The notes under the pieces are model-generated. The model ran no database searches. It saw nothing but the letters and a program-made list of their open reading frames with translations, and had not been told where the DNA came from. From positions 1 through 41,696 of the forward strand of contig CAMCTH010000001.1 in NCBI GenBank assembly GCA_945877965.1: a DNA stretch of 41,696 nt. Reading direction: 5' to 3'. Source of the DNA: Planctomicrobium piriforme. Its GTDB lineage: Bacteria > Planctomycetota > Planctomycetia > Pirellulales > PNKZ01. Made by a program: the position numbers and the translations under genes. Positions 17,162 through 37,550 of this stretch are shown here, piece by piece (the first letter of the stretch is position 1; every line of letters starts with the position of its first letter).

Positions 17162-17189
17162 ACGACGCCGAATCACCGAGTTTTACATC

Positions 17190-19552: not shown

Positions 19553-19615
19553 TCTGGATTCGGCTCGCTTTCCGAATCGGGCTGTGCTTTCGCGAGAACG
19601 ACGAATTACCGCCTT

Positions 19616-19631
19616 CGGCACGAGGAATGCA
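19616..19631 (+). promoter_or_regulatory. Sigma-54 (-24/-12) promoter-like element
   Basis: CGGCACGAGGAATGCA versus consensus TGGCACG-N4-TTGCW. GG and GC have the canonical 12-nt register. About 50 bp upstream of ATG 19681. Confidence 0.5.
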
Positions 19632-19680
19632 ATTCTCGGCGAGCAACGACCGCACTCGTTCTTTCGCCGAGGAGTAACCC

Positions 19681-20079: not shown

Positions 20080-20088
20080 GAGCAAGTC

Positions 20089-20112
20089 GGCCGCGGATCG
20101 GCCCGTTCTTTT
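20089..20112 (+). terminator. Weak hairpin plus T-rich tract (possible attenuator/terminator)
   Basis: GGCCG-cggat-CGGCC (5-bp stem) followed by cgTTcTTTT. Lies between the 132-aa gene and the cytochrome c gene. Confidence 0.3.
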
Positions 20113-20174
20113 CACGCTAATTGCTGAGCAAGCCGTCCCCTTTTTGATCGTACTGCATTGTGAGGAGTCGTCGG

Positions 20175-21236: not shown

Positions 21237-21237
21237 C

Positions 21238-21915
21238 ATGAGCGATCGCCAAAATCCTCGCTGGACCGACGACGTCGCGGCGGAAGAAGACGAACGCCGT
21301 CAGAAGACGGCCGAGTTGGGCGCGCTGAAAGAACGCGTCGAAATGCTGGAAAGCGAACTTGCCGCGATGGGCGCGCCGCGCGGCGGCTTTCACGGCTACT
21401 ACACCGCCTACTATGCCACGAGCGGCTTCATGCTCGGCATGTTCGGCGCCTGCACGAGCTTGTTGTTCAACATCGTCGGCTCGTTGCTCGTCTCGCGCGG
21501 CGGAGCCGAAGAACAGCATCCGTTGCGATTAATTCAGATCTATCTCACATTCCCCTTGGGCGAACGGGCGCTGCATATGCAAAGCGGCCTCGCGCTGGCC
21601 GTCGGATGTTGCTTGTACATTGCGACCGGCATGCTGATGGGGATGTTGTTTCATTTGTTTCTGACTCGCTACACGGCCGGCGATTCGTTTGTCAAGCGCT
21701 TTGCGATCGTCAGCGTCCTGTCGTTGGCGGTTTGGATCGTCAGCTTCTATGGCATTCTCTCGTGGCTTCAGCCGCTGTTGTTTCACGGCCGCTGGATCGT
21801 CGATCTCATCCCGCCGTGGGTCGCTGCCGCGACGCATCTCGTCTTCGGCTGGACGATGGTCTTGGTCTATCCCTGGGGTCTCTACGTCCCGTATCAGGTG
21901 GAATCGGATAAGTAA
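21238..21915 (+). CDS. Hypothetical 4-TM membrane protein with N-terminal coiled-coil segment
   Basis: ATG 21238 is 1 nt after the cytochrome c stop. The stop TAA overlaps the ccoN ATG by 1 nt. Four hydrophobic helices. I do not recognise a family. Confidence 0.7.
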   Translation: MSDRQNPRWTDDVAAEEDERRQKTAELGALKERVEMLESELAAMGAPRGGFHGYYTAYYATSGFMLGMFGACTSLLFNIVGSLLVSRGGAEEQHPLRLIQIYLTFPLGERALHMQSGLALAVGCCLYIATGMLMGMLFHLFLTRYTAGDSFVKRFAIVSVLSLAVWIVSFYGILSWLQPLLFHGRWIVDLIPPWVAAATHLVFGWTMVLVYPWGLYVPYQVESDK

Positions 21916-23339
21916 TGAACGCACCGGAAATGGAATCTTCGTCCGCGATCGGCCCGGAGTCGGCGGCCGATCTCGAACGCCTCGTCGAGCGGAAGCTCGT
22001 GCTGTGGTATTACTTCGCCGCGCTCACCTACCTCATCGTGTCGATGTTGGGCGGATTGTTGATGGCGCTGCAACTCATTCAGTGCAATGAGCTGCAAGGG
22101 ATCGAGCTCCTGTCGCCGGGGCGGTGGCGAATGTTGCACACGAACGCCATCGCGTACGGCTTCTTGGCCAATGCATTCCTCGGCACGCTGCACTGGGCGA
22201 TCCCGCGGCTCACGATGCGGCCCGTGTTGAGCAAGCCGCTGTCGTATCTGATCTTCGCCGCGTGGCAGATCGTGGTCGTCAGCACGGCGGTGGGGATTTT
22301 GCTCGGCCAGGCGCAGGCCGTCGAATGGGGCGAAACGCCGGTCTGGATCGACCCCGTGGCGCTGCTGGGACTGCTGCTTGTGGCGGTCAACTTCATGGCG
22401 CCGATCGCCGGGGCGAAAGGGCCGATGTACGTCTCGTTGTGGTATTTCATGGCCGCGTTCGTCTGGACCTTTTTGACTTATGCGATGGGGAATTTCATTC
22501 CGCAGTACGTCGTCTGCGGCACGAACGCCGGTGCGATCGCGGGATTGTTTATCCACGATCTCGTCGGGCTGTTCGTCACGCCGCTCGGCTGGGGTTTGAT
22601 GTACTACTTCGTGCCGATTCTGCTCAAGAAGCCGATCTGGAGTCACGGATTGTCGCTCGTCGGCTTCTGGGGCTTGGCGTTCTTCTATCCGTTGCAAGGG
22701 ATTCACCACTTCCTCTACACGCCGATCCCGATGTTCTTGCAGTACGGGGCCGTCATTTCGACGATCGCCGTCGAGTTCGTCGTCGCCACGGTCATCGTCA
22801 ACTTCTTCGGGACGTTATACGGCTCGGGGCGAGCGGTCGTCACGAACTTGCCGATCCGCTGGTTCTATACCGGCATGATTCTGTACTTCGTCACCTGCTT
22901 TCAATGCGCGTTGCAAGTGACGCTGACGTTCCAGCAGCTGATTCACTTCACCGACTGGGTCGTCGGCCACGCGCATCTCGTCATGTTCGGCGTGTTCAGC
23001 CAATGGTTGCTCGGCATCATGACGTACTTGATCCCGCGCCTGACCGGCAAGGAATGGTACAGCCGGACGTTGTGCGAATGGCACTACTGGCTCTCGGCGA
23101 CGAGCATCGTCGTGATGTTCTTGGACCTGACGATGGCCGGGCTGTTTCAAGGTTGGTCGTGGAGCAGCATGCAGTACTGGGACCATTCGACGCAGGTCTC
23201 GCAACCTTTCTGGATCGTGCGCGTCTTCGCCGGCTTGGCGATGTTCAGCGGACAGATCGTGTTCATCTACAACATCTACCGCACGCTGAGCGGCCCACGA
23301 ACGGCGCCGGCGACGGGACTGCAACCCGCAACGGCGTAA
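21915..23339 (+). CDS. ccoN: cbb3-type cytochrome c oxidase subunit I
   Basis: 474 aa with about 12 TM helices. Conserved His-containing blocks LQGIHHFLY, DWVVGHAHLVMFGVF and WYFMAAFVWTF. Followed by ccoO. Confidence 0.95.
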   Translation: MNAPEMESSSAIGPESAADLERLVERKLVLWYYFAALTYLIVSMLGGLLMALQLIQCNELQGIELLSPGRWRMLHTNAIAYGFLANAFLGTLHWAIPRLTMRPVLSKPLSYLIFAAWQIVVVSTAVGILLGQAQAVEWGETPVWIDPVALLGLLLVAVNFMAPIAGAKGPMYVSLWYFMAAFVWTFLTYAMGNFIPQYVVCGTNAGAIAGLFIHDLVGLFVTPLGWGLMYYFVPILLKKPIWSHGLSLVGFWGLAFFYPLQGIHHFLYTPIPMFLQYGAVISTIAVEFVVATVIVNFFGTLYGSGRAVVTNLPIRWFYTGMILYFVTCFQCALQVTLTFQQLIHFTDWVVGHAHLVMFGVFSQWLLGIMTYLIPRLTGKEWYSRTLCEWHYWLSATSIVVMFLDLTMAGLFQGWSWSSMQYWDHSTQVSQPFWIVRVFAGLAMFSGQIVFIYNIYRTLSGPRTAPATGLQPATA

Positions 23340-23390
23340 AGTCGTCGCGATCGGATCGTTACTCCTCATCACCCTCCACTGCACGCGACT

Positions 23391-24101
23391 ATGTTTGAAA
23401 GTAAAGCAGGCGTTCTGTTCATCGGCGGGCTCGGGTTCTTTGTGCTGGCCTTTATCGCCAACGGCGCCGTCCCGATGCTCATGTATCGCGACATGCCGGA
23501 GCAGACGGTGCACGAAGTCGTGAACCCGAACGTGATGTATCAGTTCGAGGATTTGAATCGCCGCTTCCCCGAGGCGTTCAAGAAGTACGTCGGCGATGCG
23601 GCCGCCGAGAAGTGGGACGACAAGCAGTGGAACGAGCACTGCGCCCAACTACTCAAGGAAGGTCGCGATATTTACGTCGGCGAAGGTTGCTGGCACTGTC
23701 ACAGTCAGTTCGTCCGTCCCGTTTCGAATGAGTCGCTCCGCTACGGTCCCGTCGCCAAGACGGAGGAGTATCAGAATGAGTTGCAACGACCGGTCTTGTT
23801 CGGCACGCGTCGCGTCGGTCCCGATCTGTCGCGCGAAGGGGGCCGTCGTTCAAGCGACTGGCATGCCGTCCATTTTCTCAATCCCCCGCTGCTCTCGCCC
23901 CACTCGCCGATGCCGCGCTACACTTGGTTCTTCGACGAAGGGAACGCCGGCAAACCGAATCGCCGCGGACTGGCGATCATGACCTATGTGCAATGGCTCG
24001 GCTCGTGGTTGGAAAGCTATCCGTACTTTGAAGATTACCAAGCGACGTCGAATCTGAACCCCGAGCCGGCCGCCGCCGCTCCGAAGGCCGCGACGCCGTA
24101 G
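23391..24101 (+). CDS. ccoO: cbb3-type cytochrome c oxidase subunit II (monohaem)
   Basis: N-terminal TM anchor. CWHCHSQFVRP haem c motif. GPDLSREGGRRS and WHAVHFLNP blocks are typical of CcoO/FixO. Confidence 0.9.
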   Translation: MFESKAGVLFIGGLGFFVLAFIANGAVPMLMYRDMPEQTVHEVVNPNVMYQFEDLNRRFPEAFKKYVGDAAAEKWDDKQWNEHCAQLLKEGRDIYVGEGCWHCHSQFVRPVSNESLRYGPVAKTEEYQNELQRPVLFGTRRVGPDLSREGGRRSSDWHAVHFLNPPLLSPHSPMPRYTWFFDEGNAGKPNRRGLAIMTYVQWLGSWLESYPYFEDYQATSNLNPEPAAAAPKAATP

Positions 24102-24151
24102 TCTGCGTGTGACATCTCATCTGTGACCAATGTATCCCGAGAACTTTTCCT

Positions 24152-24463
24152 ATGCCTGCGCCCAATCGTCGTAAGAACCGTGTTTGGACCGTCGTGACGG
24201 TGCTGTTCTTTCTCGGGCCGGCAATGTTCGGTTTCGGCACGAAGTTCTACGAGCTTGTGCAGGTCTTTCGCGGCGATGCCTCGGGGGCGTTCGCCGTGAC
24301 GCCGATCGTGAACTATCTGCTGGCCGGTTGCGGCTTCTTGTTGCTCTTCGGCTGGGCGGCGAAAAACGGCATGTTTCGCGATATCGAACAGCCGAAGTTT
24401 CTCATGCTCGAAAACGAGAATCGTCTCGATGCCGTCGAACGGTCCGCCGCGCCGCACGCTTGA
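24152..24463 (+). CDS. Hypothetical 2-TM membrane protein in the oxidase operon
   Basis: 103 aa with two clear hydrophobic helices. Sits in the position where ccoQ/ccoP normally lie. Confidence 0.6.
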   Translation: MPAPNRRKNRVWTVVTVLFFLGPAMFGFGTKFYELVQVFRGDASGAFAVTPIVNYLLAGCGFLLLFGWAAKNGMFRDIEQPKFLMLENENRLDAVERSAAPHA

Positions 24464-24501
24464 TCCGACGGCTCCGCTATTTCGCTAAGGATTTGTCGCT
24501 C

Positions 24502-24690
24502 ATGCCGACTTCGAACTCGCAATCGCCTCAGGCCGAACATCAGCATCACCGTTACGTCACGAACAGCATTCCCTGGTACGTGCGGTTGGTGTGGGTCGGT
24601 TTTTGGGCCTTCGCCATTTATTACACGATCCAGTATCTGTTCCCGGCCTTGCAGGGAGAACTCGTCATTCCGCCGAGCCCGCCGCAGTAG
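24502..24690 (+). CDS. Small single-TM protein (CcoQ-like position)
   Basis: AAGGA lies about 10 nt before ATG 24502. 62 aa with one TM (WYVRLVWVGFWAFAIYYTIQYLF). Internal to the longer track ORF 24184-24690, whose upstream part is Arg-rich shadow. Confidence 0.5.
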   Translation: MPTSNSQSPQAEHQHHRYVTNSIPWYVRLVWVGFWAFAIYYTIQYLFPALQGELVIPPSPPQ

Positions 24691-24729
24691 TGTCGCGGTG
24701 CGACGGTAGTTTGGATTCACGAGACGACG

Positions 24730-26928
24730 ATGGCGATCCCCCCTTCTCCGTTCTGCGCGCATTGCGGCTTGCCGATACCGGGCGTTGCGATCGCTGCGCC
24801 GGTCGGAGAAGTCGACGAGCCGGAGTACTGCTGCTTCGGTTGTAGTCTGGCGGCGGCCGCAGATCGCGAGCGCATCGTCGACGGCGAGATCGGCGCGACC
24901 TGCTTTCGCTTGGCCCTGTCGGTCTTTCTGTCGCTCAACGTGATGATCTTCACGATGTGGCTCTGGACGCAGGAGATCTACGGCAGCGAAGGAACGAACG
25001 GCACGGCGACGGCCGTCTTGCTTTGGAGCGTCTGTCGCTATCTTTGCCTCGTCTTTTCGTTACCCGTGTTGTGGATGCTCGGCGGACCGGTGGCCGAGGG
25101 GGCGTGGAAGTCGCTGCGGCGCGGCGTGCCGACGACCGATCTGTTGCTCGTCGCCGGAACGTTGGCGGCCTATGCCTACTCGGTCGTGTCGACGGTCCGC
25201 GGCTCGGGACCGGTTTACTTCGAAATCGGCTGCGCGGTGCTGGTACTTGTGACGCTGGGACGCTGGCTCGAAGCGCGCGGCAAGCAGCAGGCGGTCGCAG
25301 CCCTCACCTCTTTGGAAAAGCTCCTCCCCGCCGAGGTTCGTCGCTACGACGGCGATGAGCTGCGGAGCGTGCCGCTCGATGCAGTCCAAATCGGCGATCG
25401 ACTGCACGTCGTCGCCGGCGAGCGGTTGCCGACCGACGGCCGGATTGTGCGCGGCGTCGCCTCGATCGATGCCCAACTGTTGACCGGCGAGAGTCGGCCG
25501 ATCGTGCGCGAGCCGGGCGACTCCGTGCTCGGGGGAACCCTCAATCTCGACGGCGATCTGACGATCGAGGTGACTGCATCGCCGCGCGGCGGCAGTTGGC
25601 AACGGCTACTCGATTGTCTGCGGGCTGCACGACAGATGAAGGGCCGATATCAGCAACTGGCTGATCGTGTTGCGGCCTGGTTCATGCCGGCCGTCGGCGT
25701 CGTCGCGCTGGCGACGTTCGCCTATCACACGACGCACTATGGTTTAGATCGCGGCCTGTTGGCGGCCTTGGCGGTCGTGCTGGTCGCGTGTCCCTGCGCT
25801 TTGGGGTTGGCGACGCCGTTGGCGGTGTGGGCCGCGTTGGGGACCGCCGCCCGCGCGCAGGTCTTGTTCCGTCATGGGGAGGCCTTGGAACGACTCGCAG
25901 GCGTGCGCGTCTTCGGCTTCGATAAAACAGGAACGTTGACCGACGGGCAACCGAGCGTCGAGCAGTTGGCTGTAGCCGATGAGACGTTGCTCGCGGAGAT
26001 TCTCGGGCGAACGTTAGCGACCGCCTCGGCCACGACGCACGATCTCTCGCGAGCGCTAGTCGCTTACTGTCGCACGCGGCACGTCGGGCCGGTGCCGTCG
26101 TGCAACGTCCGGACCTTGCCAGGGCGCGGACTGGAAGCTTCGTTCGTCGAACTCGCGACGCCCCTCTGGCTCGGCAGCGAACGCCTGATGCGGGAACGCG
26201 AATTGAAAGTGCCCCGCGCGATCGCCGCGGCTCTGCAACGTTTTCGCCACCAAGCCGTACCGTTTACATGCGTCGGCTGGAACGGTGAGGTTCAAGCGGT
26301 CTTTAGTTTCCGCGAACAGCTGCGCACGAGTTCACGCCCTGCGCTGGCTGCGTGCCGCGACGCCGGTTTGGCGGTGGAAGTGCTCACCGGCGACCATGCG
26401 GCCCGCGGACAACTGCTGGGGCGCGAACTCAGCGTCGTCGTTTGGGCGGAGCTTTTGCCCGAGGATAAAGTTCGCCGGCTCGTGGCGTTGCGATCGAAGG
26501 TCGGTCCGATCGCGATGATCGGCGACGGCATGAACGACGCTCCGGCGTTGAGCGCCGCCGACGTCGGGATGGCGCTCGGCTGCGGGGCCGACGTCTCGCA
26601 GCAGTCAGCCGACGTCTGCTTGTTGGGGAACGATCTGAGTCGCGCCCCGTGGGCTTACGGCTTGGCGCGACAGACGATTCGGATCGTGCGACAGAATCTC
26701 TTTTGGACGTTCGCATACAATCTCGTCGCCCTAGCGTTGGCGGCGAGCGGCCGATTGAACCCGATCTGGGCCGCGGCGGCGATGGCGGCCGGCGGTTTTT
26801 GGGTCGTCGGCAACTCACTGCGTTTGGCGCACTATCCGTTGCCCGTCGAGCCGTCGGCGGACGAACTTGCAGTGACGCCGCAACGCGACGCTTCGATCTC
26901 GCAGACGTCGCCGGAGTCGGTGCCATGA
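24730..26928 (+). CDS. ccoI: Heavy-metal (Cu) translocating P1B-type ATPase, CcoI/FixI-like
   Basis: N-terminal CAHCGLP...YCCFGCS metal-binding domain as in FixI. TGES, CPCALGLATP, FDKTGTLT and GDGMNDAPAL motifs. Located in the cbb3 context. Confidence 0.9.
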   Translation: MAIPPSPFCAHCGLPIPGVAIAAPVGEVDEPEYCCFGCSLAAAADRERIVDGEIGATCFRLALSVFLSLNVMIFTMWLWTQEIYGSEGTNGTATAVLLWSVCRYLCLVFSLPVLWMLGGPVAEGAWKSLRRGVPTTDLLLVAGTLAAYAYSVVSTVRGSGPVYFEIGCAVLVLVTLGRWLEARGKQQAVAALTSLEKLLPAEVRRYDGDELRSVPLDAVQIGDRLHVVAGERLPTDGRIVRGVASIDAQLLTGESRPIVREPGDSVLGGTLNLDGDLTIEVTASPRGGSWQRLLDCLRAARQMKGRYQQLADRVAAWFMPAVGVVALATFAYHTTHYGLDRGLLAALAVVLVACPCALGLATPLAVWAALGTAARAQVLFRHGEALERLAGVRVFGFDKTGTLTDGQPSVEQLAVADETLLAEILGRTLATASATTHDLSRALVAYCRTRHVGPVPSCNVRTLPGRGLEASFVELATPLWLGSERLMRERELKVPRAIAAALQRFRHQAVPFTCVGWNGEVQAVFSFREQLRTSSRPALAACRDAGLAVEVLTGDHAARGQLLGRELSVVVWAELLPEDKVRRLVALRSKVGPIAMIGDGMNDAPALSAADVGMALGCGADVSQQSADVCLLGNDLSRAPWAYGLARQTIRIVRQNLFWTFAYNLVALALAASGRLNPIWAAAAMAAGGFWVVGNSLRLAHYPLPVEPSADELAVTPQRDASISQTSPESVP

Positions 26929-27635
26929 TGGAACTCCCGCTCGTAGCGCTCGGCGGATTGCTCGGCTCGGCGCATTGCGTCGGCATGTGCGGTAGTTTTG
27001 CGCTGCGACTTGGGGCCGACGCGACGTCGTGGCGGGCGAATCTGCTACGGCAGACGATCTACGGCGGCGGACGATTGTTTAGCTACGCCGTGCTCGGCGC
27101 GGCGGCGGGTTACGGCGGACGGCAGCTGATTCACGCCACGTCGGTCGTCAACGTTCAGGCCTGGCTGGCGGTGATCGCCGGCGGCTTCTTGGTCTGGCAA
27201 GGATTGCAGTCGACCGGCTTGCTGCGTCGTCGCGCGGTGCGCGCCGGCAATCTCACATGCTTGGGGCCGGGCTTGATCGGCACGTTATTGCAGACGCGCG
27301 GCTTCACGGCGCCGTTGCTCGCCGGCGTGCTGACGGGCTTGCTGCCGTGCGGATTGGTCTACGCGTTTCTTGCGCTGGCCGTCAGCAGCGGGACGTTGCC
27401 GTGGGGTATGGCGACGATGGTTTGCTTCGGCCTCGGTACGTTGCCGTTGATGACCGCGTTGGGAATGGGAACCGCGTTGCTGGGGCTGGTCGGACGTCGG
27501 CGCATGCTGCAGTTTGCAGCTTGGTGCGTCGTGCTCACGGGGACGTTGTCGATCGTTCGCGGCGCGGGGGTGCTGCAGGCCGAGCCGGTCGCAGAGCAAA
27601 CGGCACCCGCCTGTCCGCTCTGTTTGGAACGTTGA
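26925..27635 (+). CDS. DsbD_2 / TauE-SafE-like membrane protein (HCVGMCG motif)
   Basis: ATG 26925 overlaps the ATPase stop (ATGA). Multi-TM. The N-terminal SAHCVGMCGSF motif is typical of the family often found beside ccoI/ccoS. Confidence 0.75.
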   Translation: MMELPLVALGGLLGSAHCVGMCGSFALRLGADATSWRANLLRQTIYGGGRLFSYAVLGAAAGYGGRQLIHATSVVNVQAWLAVIAGGFLVWQGLQSTGLLRRRAVRAGNLTCLGPGLIGTLLQTRGFTAPLLAGVLTGLLPCGLVYAFLALAVSSGTLPWGMATMVCFGLGTLPLMTALGMGTALLGLVGRRRMLQFAAWCVVLTGTLSIVRGAGVLQAEPVAEQTAPACPLCLER

Positions 27636-27656: not shown

Positions 27657-28097
27657 TTAGCCGTTCGGCCGCGTCGTGCTCGGCGTCGCGGCTCGCGACG
27701 TTTCGGCACTCGGTTCTTCGATCGCCATCGTCGCCGCGCCGATGACGAGCCCGGCGAGCAAGAAGAGCAAGACCAGCAGGCCGACGCCGTAAACGGTTTG
27801 GTTCGCTTCGTCGATGCGGACGGTTCGGCCGAGCCGTTTGGTCAGCCGTTGCCCGACGACGCCGCAGACCCAACTCCAGTGCAGCATCACGTGAAACAAC
27901 ACGAGCAGCGCGAACAGCGCAAAGAGATTGAACCAAGCGGCGACCCAAGCGTCGTACCCCGAGCCCCAGAGGGTCCAGCCGTCGGCCTGCGTACCGGGAG
28001 GGAACACGAACCGCACGATAAGGGCGACGATACTCAAGCCGGCAAAGGTCCCGAGCAACAGCGTATCGAGCAGAAAATTGAGCAGCGTGCGAGACAT
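27657..28097 (-). CDS. Hypothetical 4-TM membrane protein (DUF4405-like, tentative)
   Basis: 146 aa with hydrophobic helices and a His/Trp-rich segment FHVMLHWSWV. Last gene on the minus strand after the kinase and regulator genes. Confidence 0.55.
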   Translation of the reverse strand: MSRTLLNFLLDTLLLGTFAGLSIVALIVRFVFPPGTQADGWTLWGSGYDAWVAAWFNLFALFALLVLFHVMLHWSWVCGVVGQRLTKRLGRTVRIDEANQTVYGVGLLVLLFLLAGLVIGAATMAIEEPSAETSRAATPSTTRPNG

Positions 28098-28193: not shown

Positions 28194-28916
28194 TCATACT
28201 CGGCTCAGACGTTCGACAAGGGTGAGAAATTGCGGAACGTTGAACGGCTTGTAGCAGATGGCGTCCGCCTCCGCGCTTTGTAACCGTTCCCGAGATATCT
28301 CGGCCTGAAAGCCGGTCATCAGGATCGTGCGGGCCTGCGATTCGACCTGCTTCACCGCGCGAAAGACTTCGGTCCCGTCGCCGTCGGGGAGTCGCATATC
28401 GATCAAAACGATCTGAAAGCCGCCGTCCTGCAGCCGCTCGGTCGCCGAATGGATGTCGTGGGCGATGCTCACGCGGAAGCCGCGCTCCCAGAGCAGATCC
28501 CAGAGATTCGCACAAAGGTCGACGTCGTCGTCGACAAGCAGAACGACCGGCAATCTGAGCGCCTGATCGAAGAGCGACAGCAAATGCTTCAGGTCGAGCG
28601 GCTTCGGAACGATCTGCCACATGCCGCTCTTGCGACTCTCTTCGGCGCGGGGATGATTCGGAAAGGCGGTGGCCAAAACGGCGACCGTCTCGGGATGCCG
28701 TCGCTTGATCTCTTGATACAGCGACACGCCGTCCATGTCGGGCATCATCAGATCGAGCAACGCGACGTCGAACCGCGCGTGCTCGAGCTTCGCCAGCGCC
28801 GTCGCTCCGTCGTAGGCCGTGTCGACCGTGTAGCCGAGGTCGGAAAAAATGTCGGCTAAGTTGCGGCAGGTGTCCGCTTCGTCGTCGACGATCAGTAAGG
28901 TGGGTGCGCGATTCAT
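28194..28916 (-). CDS. Response regulator with two receiver domains and no output domain
   Basis: ATG 28916 is 2 nt after the kinase stop. REC1 is LLIVDDEAD...VALLDLMMPDMDG...KP; REC2 is VLLVDDDVD...VLIDMRLPDGDG...KP. Confidence 0.85.
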   Translation of the reverse strand: MNRAPTLLIVDDEADTCRNLADIFSDLGYTVDTAYDGATALAKLEHARFDVALLDLMMPDMDGVSLYQEIKRRHPETVAVLATAFPNHPRAEESRKSGMWQIVPKPLDLKHLLSLFDQALRLPVVLLVDDDVDLCANLWDLLWERGFRVSIAHDIHSATERLQDGGFQIVLIDMRLPDGDGTEVFRAVKQVESQARTILMTGFQAEISRERLQSAEADAICYKPFNVPQFLTLVERLSRV

Positions 28917-28918
28917 CG

Positions 28919-30100
28919 TCAGGAAGATTGCTCGTTCGTCTGCGCTTTTAATCGGACGCGGAAGGTGCTGCCGCGACCCCATTCGCTTTGCACGCGCAGC
29001 GTCCCTTCGTGTTTATCCACGATCGCCTTCGCCAGAGCCAGCCCGAGCCCGAGTCCCCGGGCTTTCGTGGAGTAGAGCGGTTCCATGATCCGGAGCAACT
29101 TGTCGGCGGGGATGCCCGTGCCGGTGTCGGTGAATTCGATTTCGACGTCGTCGTCGAGCTGTTGCCCTCGAATCGTCAGGCGGCCCTGGCCCGACATCGC
29201 ATCGCGGGCATTGCGAATCAGATTGCCGAAGACGATGCGCAGTTGATTCGCGTCCCCCAGGGCGGCAGGGAGCCCCGGCGCTAAATCCAGTTCGACGTCA
29301 ATCGCCGCGGGGAGATGTTCCGTTTCGAGAACCTGACGCAGGCAATCGTGCAAAGAGAACGGAATCAACTGCGGATGCGGGAGCTTGGCAAAGTTCGAGA
29401 GCGCCGTGATCGCGTCGTCGGCAACGGTCACATGCTGCTCGATGCGTCGTAAGTGTTCGCCGACTTTCTCGGGCGAGGCATTGCGGGCGTTCAGCAGATA
29501 ATAGGCCGAGGTCTTGATGACGTTCAGCGGATTGCGCAGTTCATGGGCCACGCCGCCGGCGATCTGCCCGATGGCGGCTAGGCGTTCGTCGCGCCGTCGC
29601 CGTTCCAAGTGCTCGGCTTGGTAGGCGTCTTCGATCTTCGCCAGATCGAGATCGAGCAGCTTGTCGAGCGATTGGATCGTTTCGATCAGACTGAGCTGAT
29701 CCCCTTGCCAAGTCCGGCCGAGCGCGCCGATGAGCCCATTGCGGAGTCGCGAGAGAGCGACGTTCGTGTAGACCTGATCGAGTCCGATCTCGACGTGACG
29801 CATGCCGACGCGCCAACGACGGACGACGTAAGCCTGATCGTACGGGCCCGCCAGCAGTTCCCGGAGCCATTGGATGAGCGACTGCTTGAGGCGATCGATC
29901 TGTCGGTCGCCGCCGGTGATGACGTTGCTCGCCGCCGGATGCCGTTGAATCTCGCGATAGAAATCGTCGATCAGGCCGGGAAGAAACGAATCGAGGGGAC
30001 TGGCCAGCGCTTGCACGCGGCGCGCGTCGTCGGCATCCCAGCCGACGTACGACTGCAACTCTCGATATCGGGCCAGCAGGCCGTCTGCGTCCATCACCAT
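28919..30100 (-). CDS. Globin-coupled (protoglobin-domain) sensor histidine kinase
   Basis: N-terminal about 150 aa matches the globin-coupled-sensor pattern (DDFYREI distal Tyr region, RWRVGMRHVEIGL proximal His region). Then H-box ERLAAIGQIAGGVAHELRNPLN and an HATPase domain (DTGTGIP, GLGLGLALAK). Confidence 0.85.
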   Translation of the reverse strand: MVMDADGLLARYRELQSYVGWDADDARRVQALASPLDSFLPGLIDDFYREIQRHPAASNVITGGDRQIDRLKQSLIQWLRELLAGPYDQAYVVRRWRVGMRHVEIGLDQVYTNVALSRLRNGLIGALGRTWQGDQLSLIETIQSLDKLLDLDLAKIEDAYQAEHLERRRRDERLAAIGQIAGGVAHELRNPLNVIKTSAYYLLNARNASPEKVGEHLRRIEQHVTVADDAITALSNFAKLPHPQLIPFSLHDCLRQVLETEHLPAAIDVELDLAPGLPAALGDANQLRIVFGNLIRNARDAMSGQGRLTIRGQQLDDDVEIEFTDTGTGIPADKLLRIMEPLYSTKARGLGLGLALAKAIVDKHEGTLRVQSEWGRGSTFRVRLKAQTNEQSS

Positions 30101-30364
30101 CTGCCTAAGGTTTCATATCTGTCGCGAAAGCTATGCGCTTATCTTAATGCAATCGAACGACATAAGGAGCACCGCAGTTCATAACGATTTCGTCGAGTCG
30201 GCTCGGTCGGCGCAGGCGACTCGGAAATCAGCTATATTCGGCGGTTTGCCGAAACCCTCCGGCTGCGGAGGTTGAGTTCGCATGCAGGCGACATTAGTCT
30301 TGTTTCGCAGCGGATCACGGCAGCCGAGCAGATGCTGGATTCCATCACAAACGGATCGTCGCGG

Positions 30365-31489
30365 ATGAATCGCCATATTCTCGCCGTCGAAGACGATGCC
30401 GACGCTCTGGCGAACCTGCACGATATTCTGGAACTCGATGGGTTCCAAGTGACCGGGGCCGGGTCGATCAAAGCCGCGATGGACCGCCGCAACTGGTCGG
30501 ACTTCGCCGTCATCTTGCTCGATCGCAAGTTGCCGGACGGCACGGCCGAAGAGGTCTTGCCGCTGATTCGCGCCGCGGCTCCGCGGGCGGCGATCATCGT
30601 CATCACGGGCCATGCCGATCTGAACGGCACGATCGCGGCGTTGCGCTCCGGGGCGTCGGACTACTTGCTCAAGCCGGTGAATCCCGACTTGCTGCGGGCT
30701 GCGGTCATGCGGGCCGTCAAGTTGCTTGAGATGGAAGAGAAGATCGTGCAGTCGGAGCGCCTCGCCGCTATCGGGCAGATGATGACCGTGCTGACGCACG
30801 AGAGCGGCAACGTGCTGGCGCGGGGCAATGCTTTGCTAGAAATGTTGGCGACGGAAGTCGAAGATCGACCGGCGGCCGTCGAGTTGATCGGTCGTTTGGA
30901 AAAGGCCCATCTCGATCTGCGCCGCTTGTATGAAGAGGTGCGGAACTATGCCGCGCCGATCGAGCTGGATTGCGAACGGTGGGACTTGGGCTCCGTCTGG
31001 CGGCAGACATGGCGCAACGTGACGAGCGCGAAAGAGCACGGCAAGAAATGTTCGCTGACCGAGCAGGTCGCCGGAGTCGACTTGCGGTGCGAAGTCGATA
31101 GCTTCCGCTTCGATCAGGTTTTTCGGAACCTGTTTGATAATGCCATCGCGGCCGGCCCCGATCCAGTTTCGATCGAGGTGAGTTGCTCAGAAGCGGAGTT
31201 GTCGGGCAAGCCCGCGCTGCGAATCGGAGTGCGCGACAACGGCCCGGGGCTGACGCCGACGCAGGCGAAGCGCGTGTTTACCCCTTTCTACACGACGAAA
31301 CCGAAAGGAACGGGGCTCGGGCTGGCGATTGTGGCTCGCATCGTCGAAGCTCATCACGGCGAGATCACCGTGCAGAGCGAATCGGGCTGCGGGGCGGAGT
31401 TCGTCATCACGGTTCCGCGCCGAAGTCGTCGTCATGACGAGCCGACATCCGATCCCGCGTTGGCGTCGTCGCTTCCTACGAATCTCTAA
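30365..31489 (+). CDS. Hybrid receiver-histidine kinase (REC-HisKA-HATPase) without a recognisable sensor domain
   Basis: REC is ILAVEDDADA...VILLDRKLPDGTA...KP. H-box is ERLAAIGQMMTVLTHESGN. HATPase has VRDNGPGL and GTGLGLAIVARIV. The start is uncertain (TTG 30272, ATG 30332 or ATG 30365). Confidence 0.8.
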   Translation: MNRHILAVEDDADALANLHDILELDGFQVTGAGSIKAAMDRRNWSDFAVILLDRKLPDGTAEEVLPLIRAAAPRAAIIVITGHADLNGTIAALRSGASDYLLKPVNPDLLRAAVMRAVKLLEMEEKIVQSERLAAIGQMMTVLTHESGNVLARGNALLEMLATEVEDRPAAVELIGRLEKAHLDLRRLYEEVRNYAAPIELDCERWDLGSVWRQTWRNVTSAKEHGKKCSLTEQVAGVDLRCEVDSFRFDQVFRNLFDNAIAAGPDPVSIEVSCSEAELSGKPALRIGVRDNGPGLTPTQAKRVFTPFYTTKPKGTGLGLAIVARIVEAHHGEITVQSESGCGAEFVITVPRRSRRHDEPTSDPALASSLPTNL

Positions 31490-31510: not shown

Positions 31511-32899
31511 ATGGCTGCTTTGAGTGACTTGCTGCTGGTCGATGACGACGACGATTTTCGCAGCGCGCTCGCGCAGCGATTCACGCGGCGCGGCTATCAG
31601 GTGCAAGATGCCCCCGACGGCGTCGCCGCCTTGGCCGAGGTCGAACGTCGTCAATTTGCGGCGGCCGTCATCGACCTGATGATGCCGAAGATGTCGGGCT
31701 TGGAGTTGCTGGAGAAGCTTAAGGCAGCCGATCCCGAGTGCGAAGTGATCATGCTCACCGGCTCGGCGACGGTCGAGACGGCCGTCAAAGCGATGAAGCT
31801 GGGGGCGTACGACTATCTGACGAAGCCGTGCGTAATGGCCGAGCTCGATGCGCTGGTCGACAAGGCGGTTGAGCGTCGCCAGCTTGCCAAAGAGAACTTG
31901 CGGCTCAAGGCGATCTTGCAGCAACGGCAGCCGCAATCGGAAATGATCGGGGAGTCGCCGGCCTTGAAGGACGTGTGGCGACTCATCGAACGAGCCGGCC
32001 CGACTGACAAGGCGATTCTGATTCAAGGCGAAAGCGGCACCGGCAAGGAGCTGGTTGCCCGGGCTTTGCACCGACGCAGCACGCGCGCCGATCAACCGTT
32101 GGTGACGATCAACTGCGCGGCCCTGTCGGAAACGTTGTTGGAAAGTGAACTCTTCGGTCACGAGAAAGGGGCCTTCACCGGCGCGGTGGCGACGAAGCCC
32201 GGCTTTTTCGAAATCGCCGACGGCGGCACGCTCTTCATTGACGAAATCGGCGAGATGCCCGGCTCGTTGCAAGCCAAGTTACTTCGCGTCTTGGAAGACG
32301 GATCGATGCGGCGCGTCGGCTCGATCAAGGAACGACGCGTCGACGTTCGCTTGATCGCCGCGACGAATCGCAACATGGCGGACGAGGTGAAGGCCGGACG
32401 GTTTCGCGAGGATTTGTACTACCGGATCAACGTCTTGTCGTTGGAGCTGCCGCCGTTGCGAGAGCGCAAAGAAGACGTGCCGCTGTTGACGAAGCATTTT
32501 CTCGGTCCCGATTGGGCGATCGAGCCGCAGGCACTGCAAGCAATCGAGCGCTACGACTGGCCGGGAAACATTCGCCAATTGATCAACGTCGTCGATCGGG
32601 CGAAGATTCTGGCTGACGATCATGAGGTTCTGTTGGAAGATCTGCCGCATGAGGTTGTCGCCGGGGTGGCGGAGAAATCGTCGGCTCCGTCTCCTGCCGT
32701 CGTCGATCTCTCAAACCTGCAAACGGATGATCTTTCGGCGCTGCAGCGAGCGCACGTCGTCGAGGTGTTGAACCGCGAGCGCGGGAACAAAGCCCGCGCC
32801 GCGCGGGCCTTGGGGGTGAATCGTCGCAGCCTCTATCGCATGCTGGAAAAGTATGGCCTGCATACGACCGACGCCTCCAAGCCCGCGTCGGCCGAGTAG
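31511..32899 (+). CDS. Sigma-54-dependent NtrC-family response regulator (REC-AAA+-HTH), copy 1
   Basis: REC (LLVDDDDD...VIDLMMPKMSG). Walker A GESGTGKE. ESELFGHEKGAFTGA (GAFTGA loop). C-terminal Fis-type HTH GNKARAARALGVNRRSLYRML. Confidence 0.9.
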   Translation: MAALSDLLLVDDDDDFRSALAQRFTRRGYQVQDAPDGVAALAEVERRQFAAAVIDLMMPKMSGLELLEKLKAADPECEVIMLTGSATVETAVKAMKLGAYDYLTKPCVMAELDALVDKAVERRQLAKENLRLKAILQQRQPQSEMIGESPALKDVWRLIERAGPTDKAILIQGESGTGKELVARALHRRSTRADQPLVTINCAALSETLLESELFGHEKGAFTGAVATKPGFFEIADGGTLFIDEIGEMPGSLQAKLLRVLEDGSMRRVGSIKERRVDVRLIAATNRNMADEVKAGRFREDLYYRINVLSLELPPLRERKEDVPLLTKHFLGPDWAIEPQALQAIERYDWPGNIRQLINVVDRAKILADDHEVLLEDLPHEVVAGVAEKSSAPSPAVVDLSNLQTDDLSALQRAHVVEVLNRERGNKARAARALGVNRRSLYRMLEKYGLHTTDASKPASAE

Positions 32900-32981: not shown

Positions 32982-32997
32982 CGTGCTCAACCGCACG
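32982..32997. promoter_or_regulatory. Dyad CGTGC-N6-GCACG (core GTGC-N6-GCAC), candidate UAS
   Basis: Read directly. The centre is about 126 bp upstream of the -24 GG at 33116. A degenerate relative, GAGCGATCTTGCGCAC, lies at 32953-32968. Confidence 0.35.
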
Positions 32998-33114
32998 CGA
33001 GTCGAATCCTCCTCGTCGCCGCCGTCGCGTTATCTTACCCCGATTCGGCGAGTATCTACCCGGAATCGCGGTCGGCGGCCGCGTGTTGTCAGAAATCCGG
33101 TCGGCGGGGATTTG

Positions 33115-33130
33115 TGGAATGGAGATTGCT
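33115..33130 (+). promoter_or_regulatory. Sigma-54 (-24/-12) promoter-like element
   Basis: TGGAATGGAGATTGCT: TGG and TTGC are in the exact consensus register. About 75 bp upstream of ATG 33203. Confidence 0.45.
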
Positions 33131-33202: not shown

Positions 33203-33586
33203 ATGAAATCCGTTCTCTGGGTCGGTTTGTCTCTGTCGATGATCGGACTGGCGACGGTGCGGGGCGAGGAGCCTGCGACGGCGAAAGGGAGCGTCGTTAT
33301 GGCGAAGAAGCTGGAATACTCGCAGCAACTGCTCAGCGCGCTGATGACTGAGAACTACGACGAAGCGGATCGCAACGTGAAGTTGATGAAGATCTTCACG
33401 CGACTCGAAGAGATGTATCGCGGCAAAACGCCCGAGTACAAAGCGCAGCTAAAGAAGTTCCAAGATTCGGTCACGCAACTCTCGGCCGCCGTCGAGGCCA
33501 AGCAGCACGACGCCGCGTCGCAGGCCTATCTCGACATGCTGCAATCGTGCATCCAATGTCACAAGACCTTGCAGAAAACCAAGTAG
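33203..33586 (+). CDS. Class II (four-helix-bundle, c-prime/c556/b562-like) cytochrome c, secreted, copy 1
   Basis: Signal peptide, helical sequence, a single CxxCH at the extreme C-terminus (CIQCHK), and a Met in the first helix (VVMAKKLEY). Paralogue of 38545-38997. Confidence 0.7.
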   Translation: MKSVLWVGLSLSMIGLATVRGEEPATAKGSVVMAKKLEYSQQLLSALMTENYDEADRNVKLMKIFTRLEEMYRGKTPEYKAQLKKFQDSVTQLSAAVEAKQHDAASQAYLDMLQSCIQCHKTLQKTK

Positions 33587-33634: not shown

Positions 33635-35212
33635 ATGCCTCCCGTCGATCAACCGTCGTTGCCGATCGACCATGCCGCAGTCGTGCGCCGACTGAGCGAT
33701 CCGACGATGTACGGCAACCCGCCCGGCGGCGTCCGACGGGTCGAGACGCACATTTCGCAGGTCTTCATCACGGACCGATTCGTCTACAAGTTAAAGAAAC
33801 CGGTCCGGTTCGATTTTCTTGACTTCAGCACGGTGGAGAAGCGCGAGTTCGCCTGTCGCGAAGAGATGCGGTTGAATCGTCGGATGGCGCCCGACGTCTA
33901 TTTGGGTGTCGTTCCGCTCACCGCCTCGGCCGATGGCGTGCTGCAATTCTCAGGCGCGGGTCCGACGGTCGACTGGGTCGTAAAAATGCGTCGGCTGCCG
34001 GACGAGCGGATGCTCAATGAGTTGATTCGCCGCGGTCGGCTGACCGACGTCGATCGGCGACAGTTGGCGGAATACTTGGGGCGATACTACGCCGCAGCCG
34101 CGCCGCTCGTCGTTCGCCCTGACCAATTCATGGACTCGCTGTTGCAGCGGGTGAAAGAGAACCAGCAGGCTCTACTCTCGACGTCGGCCGCCGAGGGGGA
34201 TCAAGTCCGGCGGCTGCATTCGTTTCAACTACGCCTGCTCCGGTGTCGGCCGCAGGCGTTTCTCGACCGCCTGCTCGACGGTCGGATCATCGACGGTCAC
34301 GGCGATTTGCGGCCGGAGCATATCTGCCTGCTCGAACCTCCGGCCGTGTTCGACTGCCTGGAATTCAGCGCCGAGCTGCGTTGCGTCGACGTGCTCGATG
34401 AGCTCTGCTTCTTGACGATGGAATGCGATCGACTGCAGGCCGACGACGTCGGCGAGCAAGTGCTGCGGACCTACTGTACGCTGGCGCAAGACACGCTCTC
34501 CGCGTCGTTGATCGCGTTCTACAAATGCTATCGCGCTTGCGTCCGCGCCAAAGTCGCGGCGTTAAGGGCCGAACAGACGGCGACGGCCGAACGTGAGTCG
34601 CAGCAACTTCTCCAGCGGCAGTACCTCGATCTCGCCGACCGCTCCGTGCGCTCGGCCGGTTGTCGTCCGCTGTTGATCGTCGTCTCGGGGCTGATGGGGA
34701 CCGGCAAATCGACGCTGGCCCGAGCGCTCGGAGAGGAGTTGGCGATCGAGGTTCTGCGGACCGACGAACTCCGCGAGGAGCTGCTTCCTAAAGATCATCA
34801 GACCGCGGCGTTCGGCGAAGGCCGCTACACGCCGGAAGCGCGCGAACATGTGTATTCCGAGTTGTTTCGGCGGGCCGATCACCGGTTAGCGCAAGGGACG
34901 TCGATCTTGCTCGACGGCACCTTTAGCCAAGCCACGGTCCGGCAAGCGGCGCGGGATTGCGGCCGAGCGCGCGACGCCGACGTCGTGGAGATCGAATGCG
35001 TCTGCCCTCGCGAGATTGCTTTGCAAAGGATTCGATCGCGCCTCGGACAAGCCCAGGCCGATGTCTCCGAGGCGCGGCCGGAACTATATGATCGGCAAGT
35101 CGCCGAGCGCGAGGCGAGCGCCGCTTCAGCGTCGACCGTAACGATCGAGACGACGATGCCGCTGCACACACAGCTCGCAAACGTGTTCGCCGCGCTGCCG
35201 GCGATGGCTTAA
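33635..35212 (+). CDS. Bifunctional aminoglycoside-phosphotransferase-like / P-loop (AAA_33) kinase protein
   Basis: The N-terminal half has an APH/choline-kinase-like catalytic block IIDGHGDLRPEHICL. The C-terminal half has Walker A VSGLMGTGKSTLARAL and ILLDGTF. Confidence 0.8.
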   Translation: MPPVDQPSLPIDHAAVVRRLSDPTMYGNPPGGVRRVETHISQVFITDRFVYKLKKPVRFDFLDFSTVEKREFACREEMRLNRRMAPDVYLGVVPLTASADGVLQFSGAGPTVDWVVKMRRLPDERMLNELIRRGRLTDVDRRQLAEYLGRYYAAAAPLVVRPDQFMDSLLQRVKENQQALLSTSAAEGDQVRRLHSFQLRLLRCRPQAFLDRLLDGRIIDGHGDLRPEHICLLEPPAVFDCLEFSAELRCVDVLDELCFLTMECDRLQADDVGEQVLRTYCTLAQDTLSASLIAFYKCYRACVRAKVAALRAEQTATAERESQQLLQRQYLDLADRSVRSAGCRPLLIVVSGLMGTGKSTLARALGEELAIEVLRTDELREELLPKDHQTAAFGEGRYTPEAREHVYSELFRRADHRLAQGTSILLDGTFSQATVRQAARDCGRARDADVVEIECVCPREIALQRIRSRLGQAQADVSEARPELYDRQVAEREASAASASTVTIETTMPLHTQLANVFAALPAMA

Positions 35213-35722: not shown

Positions 35723-37129
35723 CTACATCGACATGCTTTGCGAGTCGGCCGCGGCCGTATCGTTCAGCGTAATCTGGTATCGCTCTAACAATCGATACAA
35801 GCTCCGTCGGTTCACTCCCAAAGTCCGCGCGGTGCGGGCTTTGTTACCTCGTTCACGCCGCAGCATTTCGACGATATGCGCCCGTTCGAGCGACGCTAAC
35901 GTCGTGTCGGCTTGGGTGAACGGAATCGTGGGAGAATGCGCAGCCGCCGCCGGTGCCGCTAGCTGAGTCACGTCGCGCGGCAGGTCTTGGAGTCGCACCA
36001 GGTTGTCGTCGGCCAGAATCTTGGCGCGATCGATGGCATTGCTCAGTTGCCGGATATTGCCCGGCCACGAATAACGTTCGATCGCGATCTGCGCCGCCGG
36101 TTCGATGCGCCATTGCGGACCGAGAAACTTCTGCACGAGCGGGCCGATGTCGCCGGCCCGTTCGCGGAGCGGCGGCAGTTGCAGCGACATCACGTTGATG
36201 CGGTAGTACAAATCCTCACGGAAGCGACCGGCTTTGACTTCCGCCGCCAGATCGCGATTCGTGGCGGCCAGCAGTCGGACGTCGACGCGTCGTTCGGTGA
36301 GCGAGCCGATCCGCCGCATCGAACCGTCTTCCAACACGCGCAGCAGTTTGGGTTGCAACGAGCCGGGCATCTCGCCGATCTCGTCGATGAACAGCGTGCC
36401 GCCGTCGGCGATTTCGAACAGGCCGGGCTTTGCGGCGACGGCCCCGGTAAATGAGCCTTTTTCGTGGCCGAACAGTTCGCTTTCCAACAAGTTCTCGGCC
36501 AGCGCCGCGCAGTTGATTACCACCAGCGGTTTGTCGGCCCGCAAGCTGCGACGATGCAACGCACGCGCGACGAGCTCTTTGCCGGTGCCGCTTTCGCCTT
36601 GAATCAGGACGGCCTTGTCGGTCGGGCCGGCCCGTTCGATCAGACGATAGACCTCTTGCATGGCCCCCGACTGCCCGATCATATCCGGAGCCGATTGCGA
36701 GCGCGCCAAGATCTGCTTTAACTGCAGATTCTCTTTGGCGAGCTGCCGGCGCGCGACGGCTTTGTCGAGCACGACTTCCAGTTCGGTGAGCGGACACGGC
36801 TTGGTCAGATAATCAAACACGCCGAGCTTCATCGCTTGCACGGCCGACTCGATCGTCCCCTGCCCGGTCAGCAACACGACTTCGACGTCGGGCTGCAGTG
36901 CCTTGAGTCGTTCGGCGAGTTCGACGCCCGACATGCCGGGCATCGCCATATCGAGCAGCGCGACGTCGAAGTGACGACGTTGCGCCGCCTGCAGCGCCGC
37001 TTCGCCGTCGCCGGCTTCGGCGACGCGAAAGCCGCGACGGGCCAATCGCCGCACGACGGTCTCGCGGTAGTCGGCTTCGTCATCGACGACGAGTAGGTCG
37101 ATCGTTTGCGGACTGCGTGCTTCGCTCAT
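35723..37129 (-). CDS. Sigma-54-dependent NtrC-family response regulator (REC-AAA+-HTH), copy 2
   Basis: ATG 37129. REC (LLVVDDEAD...VALLDMAMPGMSG), GESGTGKE, ESELFGHEKGSFTGA, HTH GNKARTARTLGVNRRSLYRLL. Long runs are identical to copy 1. Confidence 0.9.
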   Translation of the reverse strand: MSEARSPQTIDLLVVDDEADYRETVVRRLARRGFRVAEAGDGEAALQAAQRRHFDVALLDMAMPGMSGVELAERLKALQPDVEVVLLTGQGTIESAVQAMKLGVFDYLTKPCPLTELEVVLDKAVARRQLAKENLQLKQILARSQSAPDMIGQSGAMQEVYRLIERAGPTDKAVLIQGESGTGKELVARALHRRSLRADKPLVVINCAALAENLLESELFGHEKGSFTGAVAAKPGLFEIADGGTLFIDEIGEMPGSLQPKLLRVLEDGSMRRIGSLTERRVDVRLLAATNRDLAAEVKAGRFREDLYYRINVMSLQLPPLRERAGDIGPLVQKFLGPQWRIEPAAQIAIERYSWPGNIRQLSNAIDRAKILADDNLVRLQDLPRDVTQLAAPAAAAHSPTIPFTQADTTLASLERAHIVEMLRRERGNKARTARTLGVNRRSLYRLLERYQITLNDTAAADSQSMSM

Positions 37130-37316
37130 GGTGTGATGGAGGAGGGCGGTGTGGGTGGGAGGGAATCGATCGACGTTCGGCACCCGCGCCGAGCACATCG
37201 TCGCGGTTCGCAGCGGACTAAATGCAATCGCCGTACCGGATTACGCAGAGCCGGTGCGAACGACGAATAGATGCCGCTTTCCCGCATATATCGTCAAAAG
37301 AGGGGCCGAACGGAAT

Positions 37317-37338
37317 GTGCGATCTCGCACGATCGTGC
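37317..37338. promoter_or_regulatory. Overlapping dyads GTGC-N6-GCAC (37317-37330) and GCACGATCGTGC (37327-37338), candidate UAS
   Basis: Both palindromes read directly. The centre is about 110 bp upstream of the -24 GG at 37437. Lies in the divergent region between NtrC copy 2 and the usp operon. Confidence 0.4.
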
Positions 37339-37435
37339 CCTGCCGCCCGTTGCTCACGCGCGCGAGCGGCGCACCGTAATCGCGAAGACCCGCGAAATGC
37401 CGAGGGAAAACGTCGCCCACGCGTTCGCGATCGGC

Positions 37436-37451
37436 CGGCACTCGATTCGCA
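37436..37451 (+). promoter_or_regulatory. Sigma-54 (-24/-12) promoter-like element
   Basis: CGGCACTCGATTCGCA: GGCAC and GC are in the canonical 12-nt register. About 100 bp upstream of ATG 37551. Confidence 0.5.
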
Positions 37452-37550
37452 TTGATTATCCACGGCGAGGCAAAACGCCGGTCGTTCGTCATCTGGGCGA
37501 CGCTGCGAAACTTGGTGCGAGCAGTGAATCTTTGTGCGAGGCAGTAAAAC

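Follow-up and report, generated by a model that had tools for sequence, protein, structure and literature searches.

A very probable planctomycete version of the NmpRSTU oxygen-sensing phosphorelay in Planctomicrobium piriforme

The DNA analysed here, referred to as the window, is a stretch of 41,696 nt from contig CAMCTH010000001.1 of Planctomicrobium piriforme (GCA_945877965.1), in which a sequence-only reading had noticed genes for a globin-coupled histidine kinase and for a partner protein with two receiver domains. Together with a neighbouring receiver-kinase gene and two genes for NtrC-type activators, these genes very probably represent a planctomycete version of NmpRSTU, the oxygen-sensing phosphorelay of Myxococcus xanthus, and we propose a mechanism and targets for it. 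The system is known in kind, from NmpRSTU and from the Anaeromyxobacter kinase AfGcHK, and nothing in it changes how such relays are understood; what is new lies in a candidate operator for planctomycetes, a candidate regulon beside the module, a duplicated output and an orphan second sensor, all of them computational proposals. The sequence-only reading had named the receiver-kinase and the NtrC paralogues as possible routes of output, which still stands, whereas its view that the downstream target is unknown was too pessimistic, since the four-component arrangement is published as NmpRSTU in M. xanthus and the target is thus known in principle. We denote the genes and their products U, T, S and R after their Nmp counterparts, with two copies of R:

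28919-30100, minus strand: U, an nmpU-like globin-coupled histidine kinase of 393 aa (Pfam Protoglobin, HisKA and HATPase_c; aligned to structure 5ohe)
28194-28916, minus strand: T, an nmpT-like protein of 240 aa with two receivers only (Asp55 and Asp173; Lys105 and Lys223)
30365-31489, plus strand: S, an nmpS-like hybrid kinase composed of a receiver at the N-terminus (Asp53, numbered from ATG 30365), the H-box LTHESGN (His145) and HATPase_c
31511-32899, plus strand: R1, copy 1 of an NtrC-type, nmpR-like sigma-54 activator (Pfam receiver, Sigma54_activat and HTH_8), beginning 21 nt after the S gene
35723-37198, minus strand: R2, copy 2 of the NtrC-type activator, with ATG 37129 as probable start

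The identity of U as a globin-coupled kinase was confirmed by a hidden Markov model search with Pfam profiles, which matched Protoglobin (PF11563) at residues 10-164 (E 1.2e-30, 107 bits against a cut-off of 25), HisKA at residues 178-240 (32.3 bits against a cut-off of 26.9) and HATPase_c at residues 282-387 (E 1.1e-24, 87 bits), as well as Response_reg in the associated proteins. When U was compared with PDB sequences by phmmer, its residues 12-161 gave a gap-free alignment with residues 9-158 of chain 5ohe_A, the globin domain of AfGcHK (E 4.1e-27), the AfGcHK globin structures matched being 5ohe, 5ohf and 6otd. The offset is +3 throughout, so that Tyr48 (in DDFYREI), His102 (in GMRHVEIGL) and His186 (in VAHELRNPL), which the sequence-only reading had placed correctly, correspond to AfGcHK Tyr45, His99 and His183; these latter numbers, also quoted in that reading, are given in PMC8697598 together with the roles of the three residues. 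Distal Tyr48, proximal His102 and phospho-accepting His186 are invariant across nine aligned sequences, comprising U, six planctomycete homologues, the second paralogue of the same genome and the orthologue of Anaeromyxobacter soli. Tyr18 and Leu71, which we take to be the counterparts of AfGcHK Tyr15 and Leu68, are likewise invariant, and the haem pocket is intact. Gene callers and homologues place the start of U two codons downstream, at ATG 30094, which is probably the true start and would yield 391 aa, with all residue numbers reduced by 2.

The partner T contains two Response_reg stretches (E 3.1e-45) and, by Pfam, no output domain, and both of its receivers retain the Asp, the Thr and the Lys, in agreement with the earlier assignment of Asp55 and Asp173. 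Its longest open reading frame (ORF) has its start at 28982, within the kinase gene; homologues begin at ATG 28916, 2 nt past the kinase TGA. For the AfGcHK partner, the sequence-only reading had named phosphorylation at Asp52 and Asp169. The orthologues of A. soli SG29, in which the globin domain is 83% identical to that of AfGcHK, carry Tyr45/His99/His183 and Asp52/Asp169, which renders these numbers credible by an indirect route. The window pair thus resembles AfGcHK and its regulator (Anae109_2438/2439 of Anaeromyxobacter sp. Fw109-5) in the ungapped globin domain with its three key residues and in the two receivers, but belongs to a different phylum, shows about 36-37% full-length identity, the comparison being with Anaeromyxobacter proteins closely related to AfGcHK, and is accompanied in its genome by a second, orphan kinase paralogue. 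All sequence features that could be checked here support the view of U as a putative globin-coupled kinase that would sense O2 through haem and act with a dual-receiver partner, as the sequence-only reading of a haem-based two-component system had it. On the same strand, 96 nt downstream of T, lies a gene for a DUF4405 protein with four transmembrane segments (27657-28097, minus strand). It was considered as a third operon member or effector and rejected; no homologue adjoins T in 139 other loci, and the DUF4405 protein is therefore probably outside the system.

These 139 loci (labels L0xx-L1xx) were searched by tblastn with the window proteins, and 100 of them, 38 of planctomycete type and 62 of myxobacterial type, contain a full-length globin kinase. 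T adjoins the kinase in at least 33 of the 38 and 48 of the 62 (81/100), and an S-type receiver-kinase is present in at least 71 of the 100, both tallies being minima, since short contigs are frequent among the loci. U-T-S-R make up a single same-strand operon in the closest relative (76% identity), while the relatives at 71-72% have the divergent pairs R-S and U-T, which is the layout of the window; relatives generally carry an NtrC gene behind or beside the S gene. Anaeromyxobacter species throughout have U-T-S with R on the opposite strand, and in M. xanthus AM003 (L110), U-T-S are accompanied by a partial R, with identities of 34/35/33/41%. In all, some 70 related loci have the four genes side by side.

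The genomic context described in the sequence-only reading was recovered as well, with cbb3 genes at 20160-27635 on the plus strand, the receiver-kinase at 30272- or 30365-31489 on the same strand, and NtrC genes at 31511-32899 (plus) and 35723-37198 (minus). For S, Pfam matches Response_reg and HATPase_c on the ORF 30272-31489, the start at 30365 being set by homology, and finds no sensory domain; as the receiver is its sole sensor, S needs an upstream kinase. It aligns collinearly with the A. soli NmpS homologue over residues 10-371 at 31% identity. The genome searched is a 4.96-Mb metagenome-assembled genome of 733 contigs and 75% completeness, so that absence elsewhere in it is weak evidence; within it, the sole match of the A. 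soli T homologue is the T of the window, and the S of the window is the only full-length collinear receiver-plus-kinase match to the A. soli S homologue. R1 and R2 are 67% identical and share the helix-turn-helix (HTH) recognition helix LGVNRRSLYR, and the gene for their sigma factor, rpoN, is present on contig C11 (E 9e-62). Relatives usually have a single activator, either an R1-like one beside S or an R2-like one divergent from usp; the window has both.

In M. xanthus, NmpRSTU corresponds to Mxan_4246/4245/4244/4240 (Bretl et al. 2018, PMC6211767; McAllister et al. 2025, PMC11841059). NmpU is a protoglobin kinase homologous to AfGcHK, NmpT has two receivers and is a proposed 'phospho-sink', NmpS is a hybrid kinase that carries a receiver at its N-terminus, and NmpR is an NtrC-like activator (PMC6211767, PMC11841059). 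NmpU phosphorylates the first receiver of NmpT (NmpT-REC1) and the NmpS receiver in vitro, but not NmpR, and NmpS phosphorylates NmpR only (PMC6211767); since phosphorylated NmpS is off, the loss of NmpU activity at low O2 switches NmpR on (PMC6211767, PMC11841059). The experimentally confirmed, hypoxia-induced NmpR regulon includes universal stress protein (USP), hemerythrin, and a P-type ATPase with cbb3 oxidase (PMC11841059). That the synteny is shared outside deltaproteobacteria is stated in the legend of S2 Fig of PMC6211767, where Planctomycetes species are marked.

The window agrees with this system in the four protein architectures, in the clustering of the genes and in its neighbouring candidate target families, which are those of the NmpR regulon. 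A further, suggestive likeness lies in helix alpha-1 of the receivers. The motif xDxxxNLxD[IL] is common to T-REC1, S-REC and T-REC2 in the window and its relatives, while R1 and R2 differ; compared over the whole helix, T-REC1 and S-REC are 40% identical, against 20-27% for either of them and R. The pattern hints at a putative specificity that T-REC1 would have in common with S-REC but not with R. M. xanthus likewise has the alpha-1 signature in NmpT-REC1 and the NmpS receiver and not in NmpR, and it has been used there to explain how NmpU serves both NmpT and NmpS (PMC6211767). On the other hand, the window proteins are just 33-41% identical to those of M. xanthus, and the window has divergent pairs (T-U and S-R), where M. 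xanthus has a U-T-S operon and, 4 kb from it, R. Its activator is duplicated and carries a different recognition helix, and a candidate GTGC-N6-GCAC dyad takes the place of the NmpR box GCGCA-N5-TGCGC. No link to CBS-domain, pilR or hemN genes was seen in the window, and the module and its putative regulon lie together in one island of about 20 kb.

It is conceivable that U and T form a self-contained two-component system in which T alone passes on the signal by protein-protein contact, for example with the oxidase, the DUF4405 protein or another enzyme, and to which the receiver-kinase and NtrC proteins, as a separate system, do not belong. U and T are translationally coupled across their 2-nt gap and are the most conserved pair, T has kept the conserved residues of both receivers, and the Polyangiales loci L039-L050 have U with a single-receiver protein only, with neither S nor R within the flanks; even for M. 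xanthus, the role of NmpT is still termed unclear (PMC6211767). We nevertheless consider this arrangement quite improbable, given the frequency of S among the loci and the U-T-S-R operon of the closest relative, the dependence of S on an upstream kinase, the alpha-1 motif common to T-REC1 and S-REC, the phosphotransfer from NmpU to NmpS shown in vitro for M. xanthus (PMC6211767), and the lack of a DUF4405 gene beside T in any other locus. Within an Nmp-like relay, T would probably act as a phospho-sink or modulator.

On the model of AfGcHK and Nmp, the relay in the window is expected to operate as follows. With O2-bound or ferric haem, U would autophosphorylate on His186 and pass the phosphate to Asp55 of T, serving as a sink, and to Asp53 in the receiver of S, the kinase activity of which would thereby be held off. 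When O2 falls, five-coordinate ferrous haem would silence U, and S would lose its inhibitory phosphate, autophosphorylate and, in its active form, phosphorylate the NtrC activators R1 and R2. The phosphorylated activators would then bind dyads of the type TGTGC-N6-GCACA and open sigma-54 promoters, with the cbb3/CcoI cluster, an operon of cytochrome c' and a P-loop kinase, and a usp-hemerythrin-cytochrome c' operon as predicted targets; the R2 gene may itself be a target, which would amount to positive feedback. In placing a haem sensor kinase above a low-oxygen respiratory or dormancy regulon, this scheme resembles FixL/FixJ and DosS/DosT-DosR, with cbb3 oxidase in the FixLJ-FixK regulon and USPs in that of DosR. 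Those systems, however, sense through haem-PAS or haem-GAF domains and not through a globin, transfer phosphate from kinase to regulator in one step, and have sigma-70-type outputs (FixJ and DosR being of LuxR type) instead of sigma-54 activators.

The relay could also work as described and yet respond primarily to something other than O2, such as the redox state of the haem, NO or CO, or have the opposite sign and be active when deoxy. Cytochrome c' proteins, of which the candidate regulon includes two, belong to a family that binds NO and CO. AfGcHK is active with Fe(III), Fe(II)-O2 or Fe(II)-CO haem and inactive only in the five-coordinate Fe(II) form (PMC8697598), so that this protein reads the coordination state and not O2 as such. 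In the window, however, Tyr48, which corresponds to the O2-recognition residue of AfGcHK, is invariant together with the rest of the pocket, and cbb3 oxidase, hemerythrin and usp make up a typical low-oxygen set that matches the hypoxia-induced regulon of M. xanthus. A primary signal other than O2, or a reversed sign, is thus very improbable.

For the output of the proposed relay, we considered inverted repeats in combination with sigma-54 promoters. Counts of the plain sigma-54 consensus show no enrichment in the window (40 against 38 expected), which leaves only position-aware composite sites as informative. The window contains three exact GTGC-N6-GCAC dyads, all of them intergenic and each situated 65-118 nt upstream of a GG-N10-GC element. 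The corresponding candidate control regions are:

19537-19631, plus strand: candidate cbb3 control region, with the dyad TGTGC-CGCGCC-GCACA (19537-19550) and the putative promoter element CGGCACGAGGAATGCA (19616-19631)
32983-33130, plus strand: region upstream of the cytochrome c' gene, with the dyad GTGCTCAACCGCAC (32983-32996) and the sigma-54-like element TGGAATGGAGATTGCT (33115-33130)
37223-37451, no strand assigned: divergent R2/usp control region, with the dyad TGTGCGATCTCGCAC (37317-37330) and a repeat with one mismatch (37335-37348)
37436-37451, plus strand: sigma-54-like element CGGCACTCGATTCGCA, facing the usp, hemerythrin and cytochrome c'-like genes
37223-37238, minus strand: sigma-54-like element CGGTACGGCGATTGCA, facing R2

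By a composite site we mean an exact dyad accompanied by an outward-facing sigma-54-like element (score >=17 on a scale of our own) at a distance of 20-220 nt. The cytochrome c' site did not enter the enrichment test, since its promoter scores 16.5 and thus falls below the threshold. There are two such sites in the window, ten in 36 independent planctomycete nmp loci (0.41 Mb) and eight in the rest of the genome (4.92 Mb). Measured against the rest of the genome, the window and the 36 loci together contain 12 sites where 0.74 are expected (Poisson P 3e-11, about 16-fold), indicating that the dyad/promoter sites are not randomly distributed. In relatives, composite sites precede usp, the NtrC gene, the AAA_33 kinase operon and, in L057, a NiFe-hydrogenase operon, and their commonest dyad form is GTGCGAWTCSGCAC; the layouts of L079 (usp, dyad, NtrC) and L059 reproduce the window region 37198-37551. 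Genome-wide, 111 exact dyads were found, nine of which an ORF heuristic calls intergenic; two of these nine are in the window, the third window dyad being miscalled as coding, and the remaining intergenic ones in the genome are without a properly placed -24/-12 element. A scan of the U/T region for sigma-70 promoters and terminators gave nothing above chance.

Several observations count against the assignment of the window genes to an Nmp-like relay, or against parts of it. The window proteins are credited with haem binding, with a gas selectivity and with a sign of regulation by analogy with proteins that are just 34-37% identical. The Anaeromyxobacter NmpR homologue matches six NtrC proteins of the genome alike, at 44-47%, so that the assignment of the two NtrC copies as NmpR equivalents rests on synteny; orthology by reciprocal BLAST was dropped as a criterion, the six paralogues not being separable at these values. 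The U/S intergenic region yielded no consensus promoter of either the sigma-54 or the sigma-70 type. Nor is the NmpR box of M. xanthus enriched in the window, with 56 matches at up to two mismatches against 93 expected, and the recognition helix of the window activators differs from ISVRKIQYRLKEY, the helix of M. xanthus and Anaeromyxobacter NmpR. Taken together, these two findings lead one to expect a different operator, and the NmpR box is a trait of the output at the level of the species rather than of the relay. The single NmpR box with one mismatch in the U/S spacer, 24 nt before the kinase start, was treated as a chance match. As to the dyad, its count in the window alone is not significant (3 against 1.27 expected), and the candidate was proposed from the window first and the relatives examined afterwards.

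The remaining points on this side concern the cbb3 oxidase, whose control by an Nmp-like relay in the window we regard as plausible and moderately probable, and which is the weakest part of the argument. The cbb3 element in the window scores 18 and lies 65 nt downstream of the dyad, with ATG 19681 another 50 nt further on, but the site is a single, GC-rich dyad that departs from the GTGCGAWTCSGCAC form of the relatives. In Singulisphaera (L061), the cbb3 gene order is identical and is followed by U-T, there co-directional and in the window convergent, an orientation difference that argues for a functional association over a merely inherited order. Yet upstream of the Singulisphaera cbb3 genes there is neither a dyad nor a sigma-54 element, and a divergent gene is found there whose product, judged by eye, resembles cyclic nucleotide monophosphate-binding proteins. 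The oxidase adjacency and the dyads might thus be coincidental, with cbb3 under a regulator of the Fnr/FixK type and the relay controlling only the usp, hemerythrin and cytochrome c' genes. The presence of cbb3 or ccoI within the flanks of only 2 of the 38 planctomycete-type loci would be in keeping with such a division. Against it stand the extended palindrome TGTGC...GCACA of the window site with its well-placed -24/-12 element, the adjacency of U-T and cbb3 in two orientations and the occurrence of U-T near ccoN/O/I in Polyangiales and Myxococcaceae loci, and the direct activation of the P-type ATPase and cbb3 operon by NmpR in M. xanthus (PMC11841059). On balance, we consider a coincidental adjacency unlikely, though well short of negligible.

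The operons that the relay would control are:

19681-27635, plus strand: cbb3 oxidase cluster, from a 132-aa ORF to a DsbD_2 gene (Pfam), a candidate target
33203-33586 and 33635-35212, plus strand: cytochrome c' and a 525-aa AAA_33 P-loop kinase (Pfam), a candidate target operon
37551-38012, 38009-38482 and 38545-38997, plus strand: usp, hemerythrin and a cytochrome c'-like gene, a candidate target operon

The cbb3 cluster consists of the 132-aa ORF (no family), cytochrome c (20160-21236), a 225-aa membrane ORF (21238-21915), CcoN, CcoO, a 168-aa ORF (no family), a CcoI-like P-type ATPase and the DsbD_2 protein. It is non-canonical, with no recognisable CcoP, Q, G, H or S found in it. In the usp operon, Pfam matches Usp (E 1e-33) and Hemerythrin (E 2.4e-8), and the product of 38545-38997 is a paralogue of the cytochrome c' gene product (E 4e-12). 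Many planctomycete loci again have genes for usp, hemerythrin, cytochrome c' and the AAA_33 kinase next to their nmp genes; homologues of the latter two adjoin nmp genes in L059, L075, L079 and L088, and in L075 the order is R / usp-hemerythrin-cytochrome c'-AAA_33-U-T-S. The 525-aa protein has a C-terminal AAA_33/zeta-toxin-like P-loop kinase domain, preceded by an N-terminal part of about 340 aa that has no Pfam match. In L057, a relative at 71%, U-T are followed within 11985-21206 by a dyad, a sigma-54-like promoter and an operon for NiFe-hydrogenase and its hyp maturation proteins, which suggests that the regulon of the relay differs between lineages.

Considering all of these elements jointly, one can picture the Nmp relay of Planctomycetota as rewired at its output, with a different recognition helix and a TGTGC-N6-GCACA dyad, and as governing a compact low-oxygen island composed of cbb3 with CcoI, the usp-hemerythrin-cytochrome c' operon and the cytochrome c'-APH/P-loop kinase operon, to which relatives would add NiFe hydrogenase. 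The duplicated activator, one copy of which lies under its own dyad and sigma-54 promoter, would then provide a feed-forward or feedback tier, and the second globin kinase of the genome, on contig C41, might feed T and S. We offer this combined picture tentatively, as possible rather than probable. We know of no studied O2 sensor from the planctomycete phylum, the literature on that point not having been searched, and the present assignment gives low-oxygen gene control in a planctomycete a named model with an experimental basis; what had appeared as a regulator with no output can now be tested as a circuit whose candidate DNA sites and target operons are spelled out. Moreover, the same families (USP, hemerythrin, cbb3 with a P-type ATPase) are found beside Nmp modules in two distant phyla, which supports the published idea of NmpRSTU as a horizontally mobile controller of oxygen utilisation. 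Within the phylum, globin kinases of the AfGcHK/NmpU type are sporadic, occurring in 7 of 201 sampled genomes, and this fits the horizontal transfer of NmpRSTU proposed in 2018 (PMC6211767).

The second globin kinase is encoded at 10573-11763 of contig C41 on the minus strand, comprises 396 aa, is 59% identical to U and has kept the Tyr/His/His set. No receiver or regulator gene is found near it, and the genes downstream are of the PSCyt/PSD1 type (DUF1549/DUF1553) and the DUF1501 type, as named by eye and from similar genes in L059. This orphan may feed the same T and S receivers as U does. Paired copies of U were also seen in Singulisphaera (L006) and in L064. In loci L120-L140, from Chloroflexota, Omnitrophota, Bacteroidales and archaeal metagenome-assembled genomes, globin-less kinases whose match to U is limited to the HisKA/HATPase core are followed by a T-like dual-receiver protein and then by another receiver gene, and the pairing of a kinase with a dual-receiver protein may thus be older and wider than its globin-coupled form.

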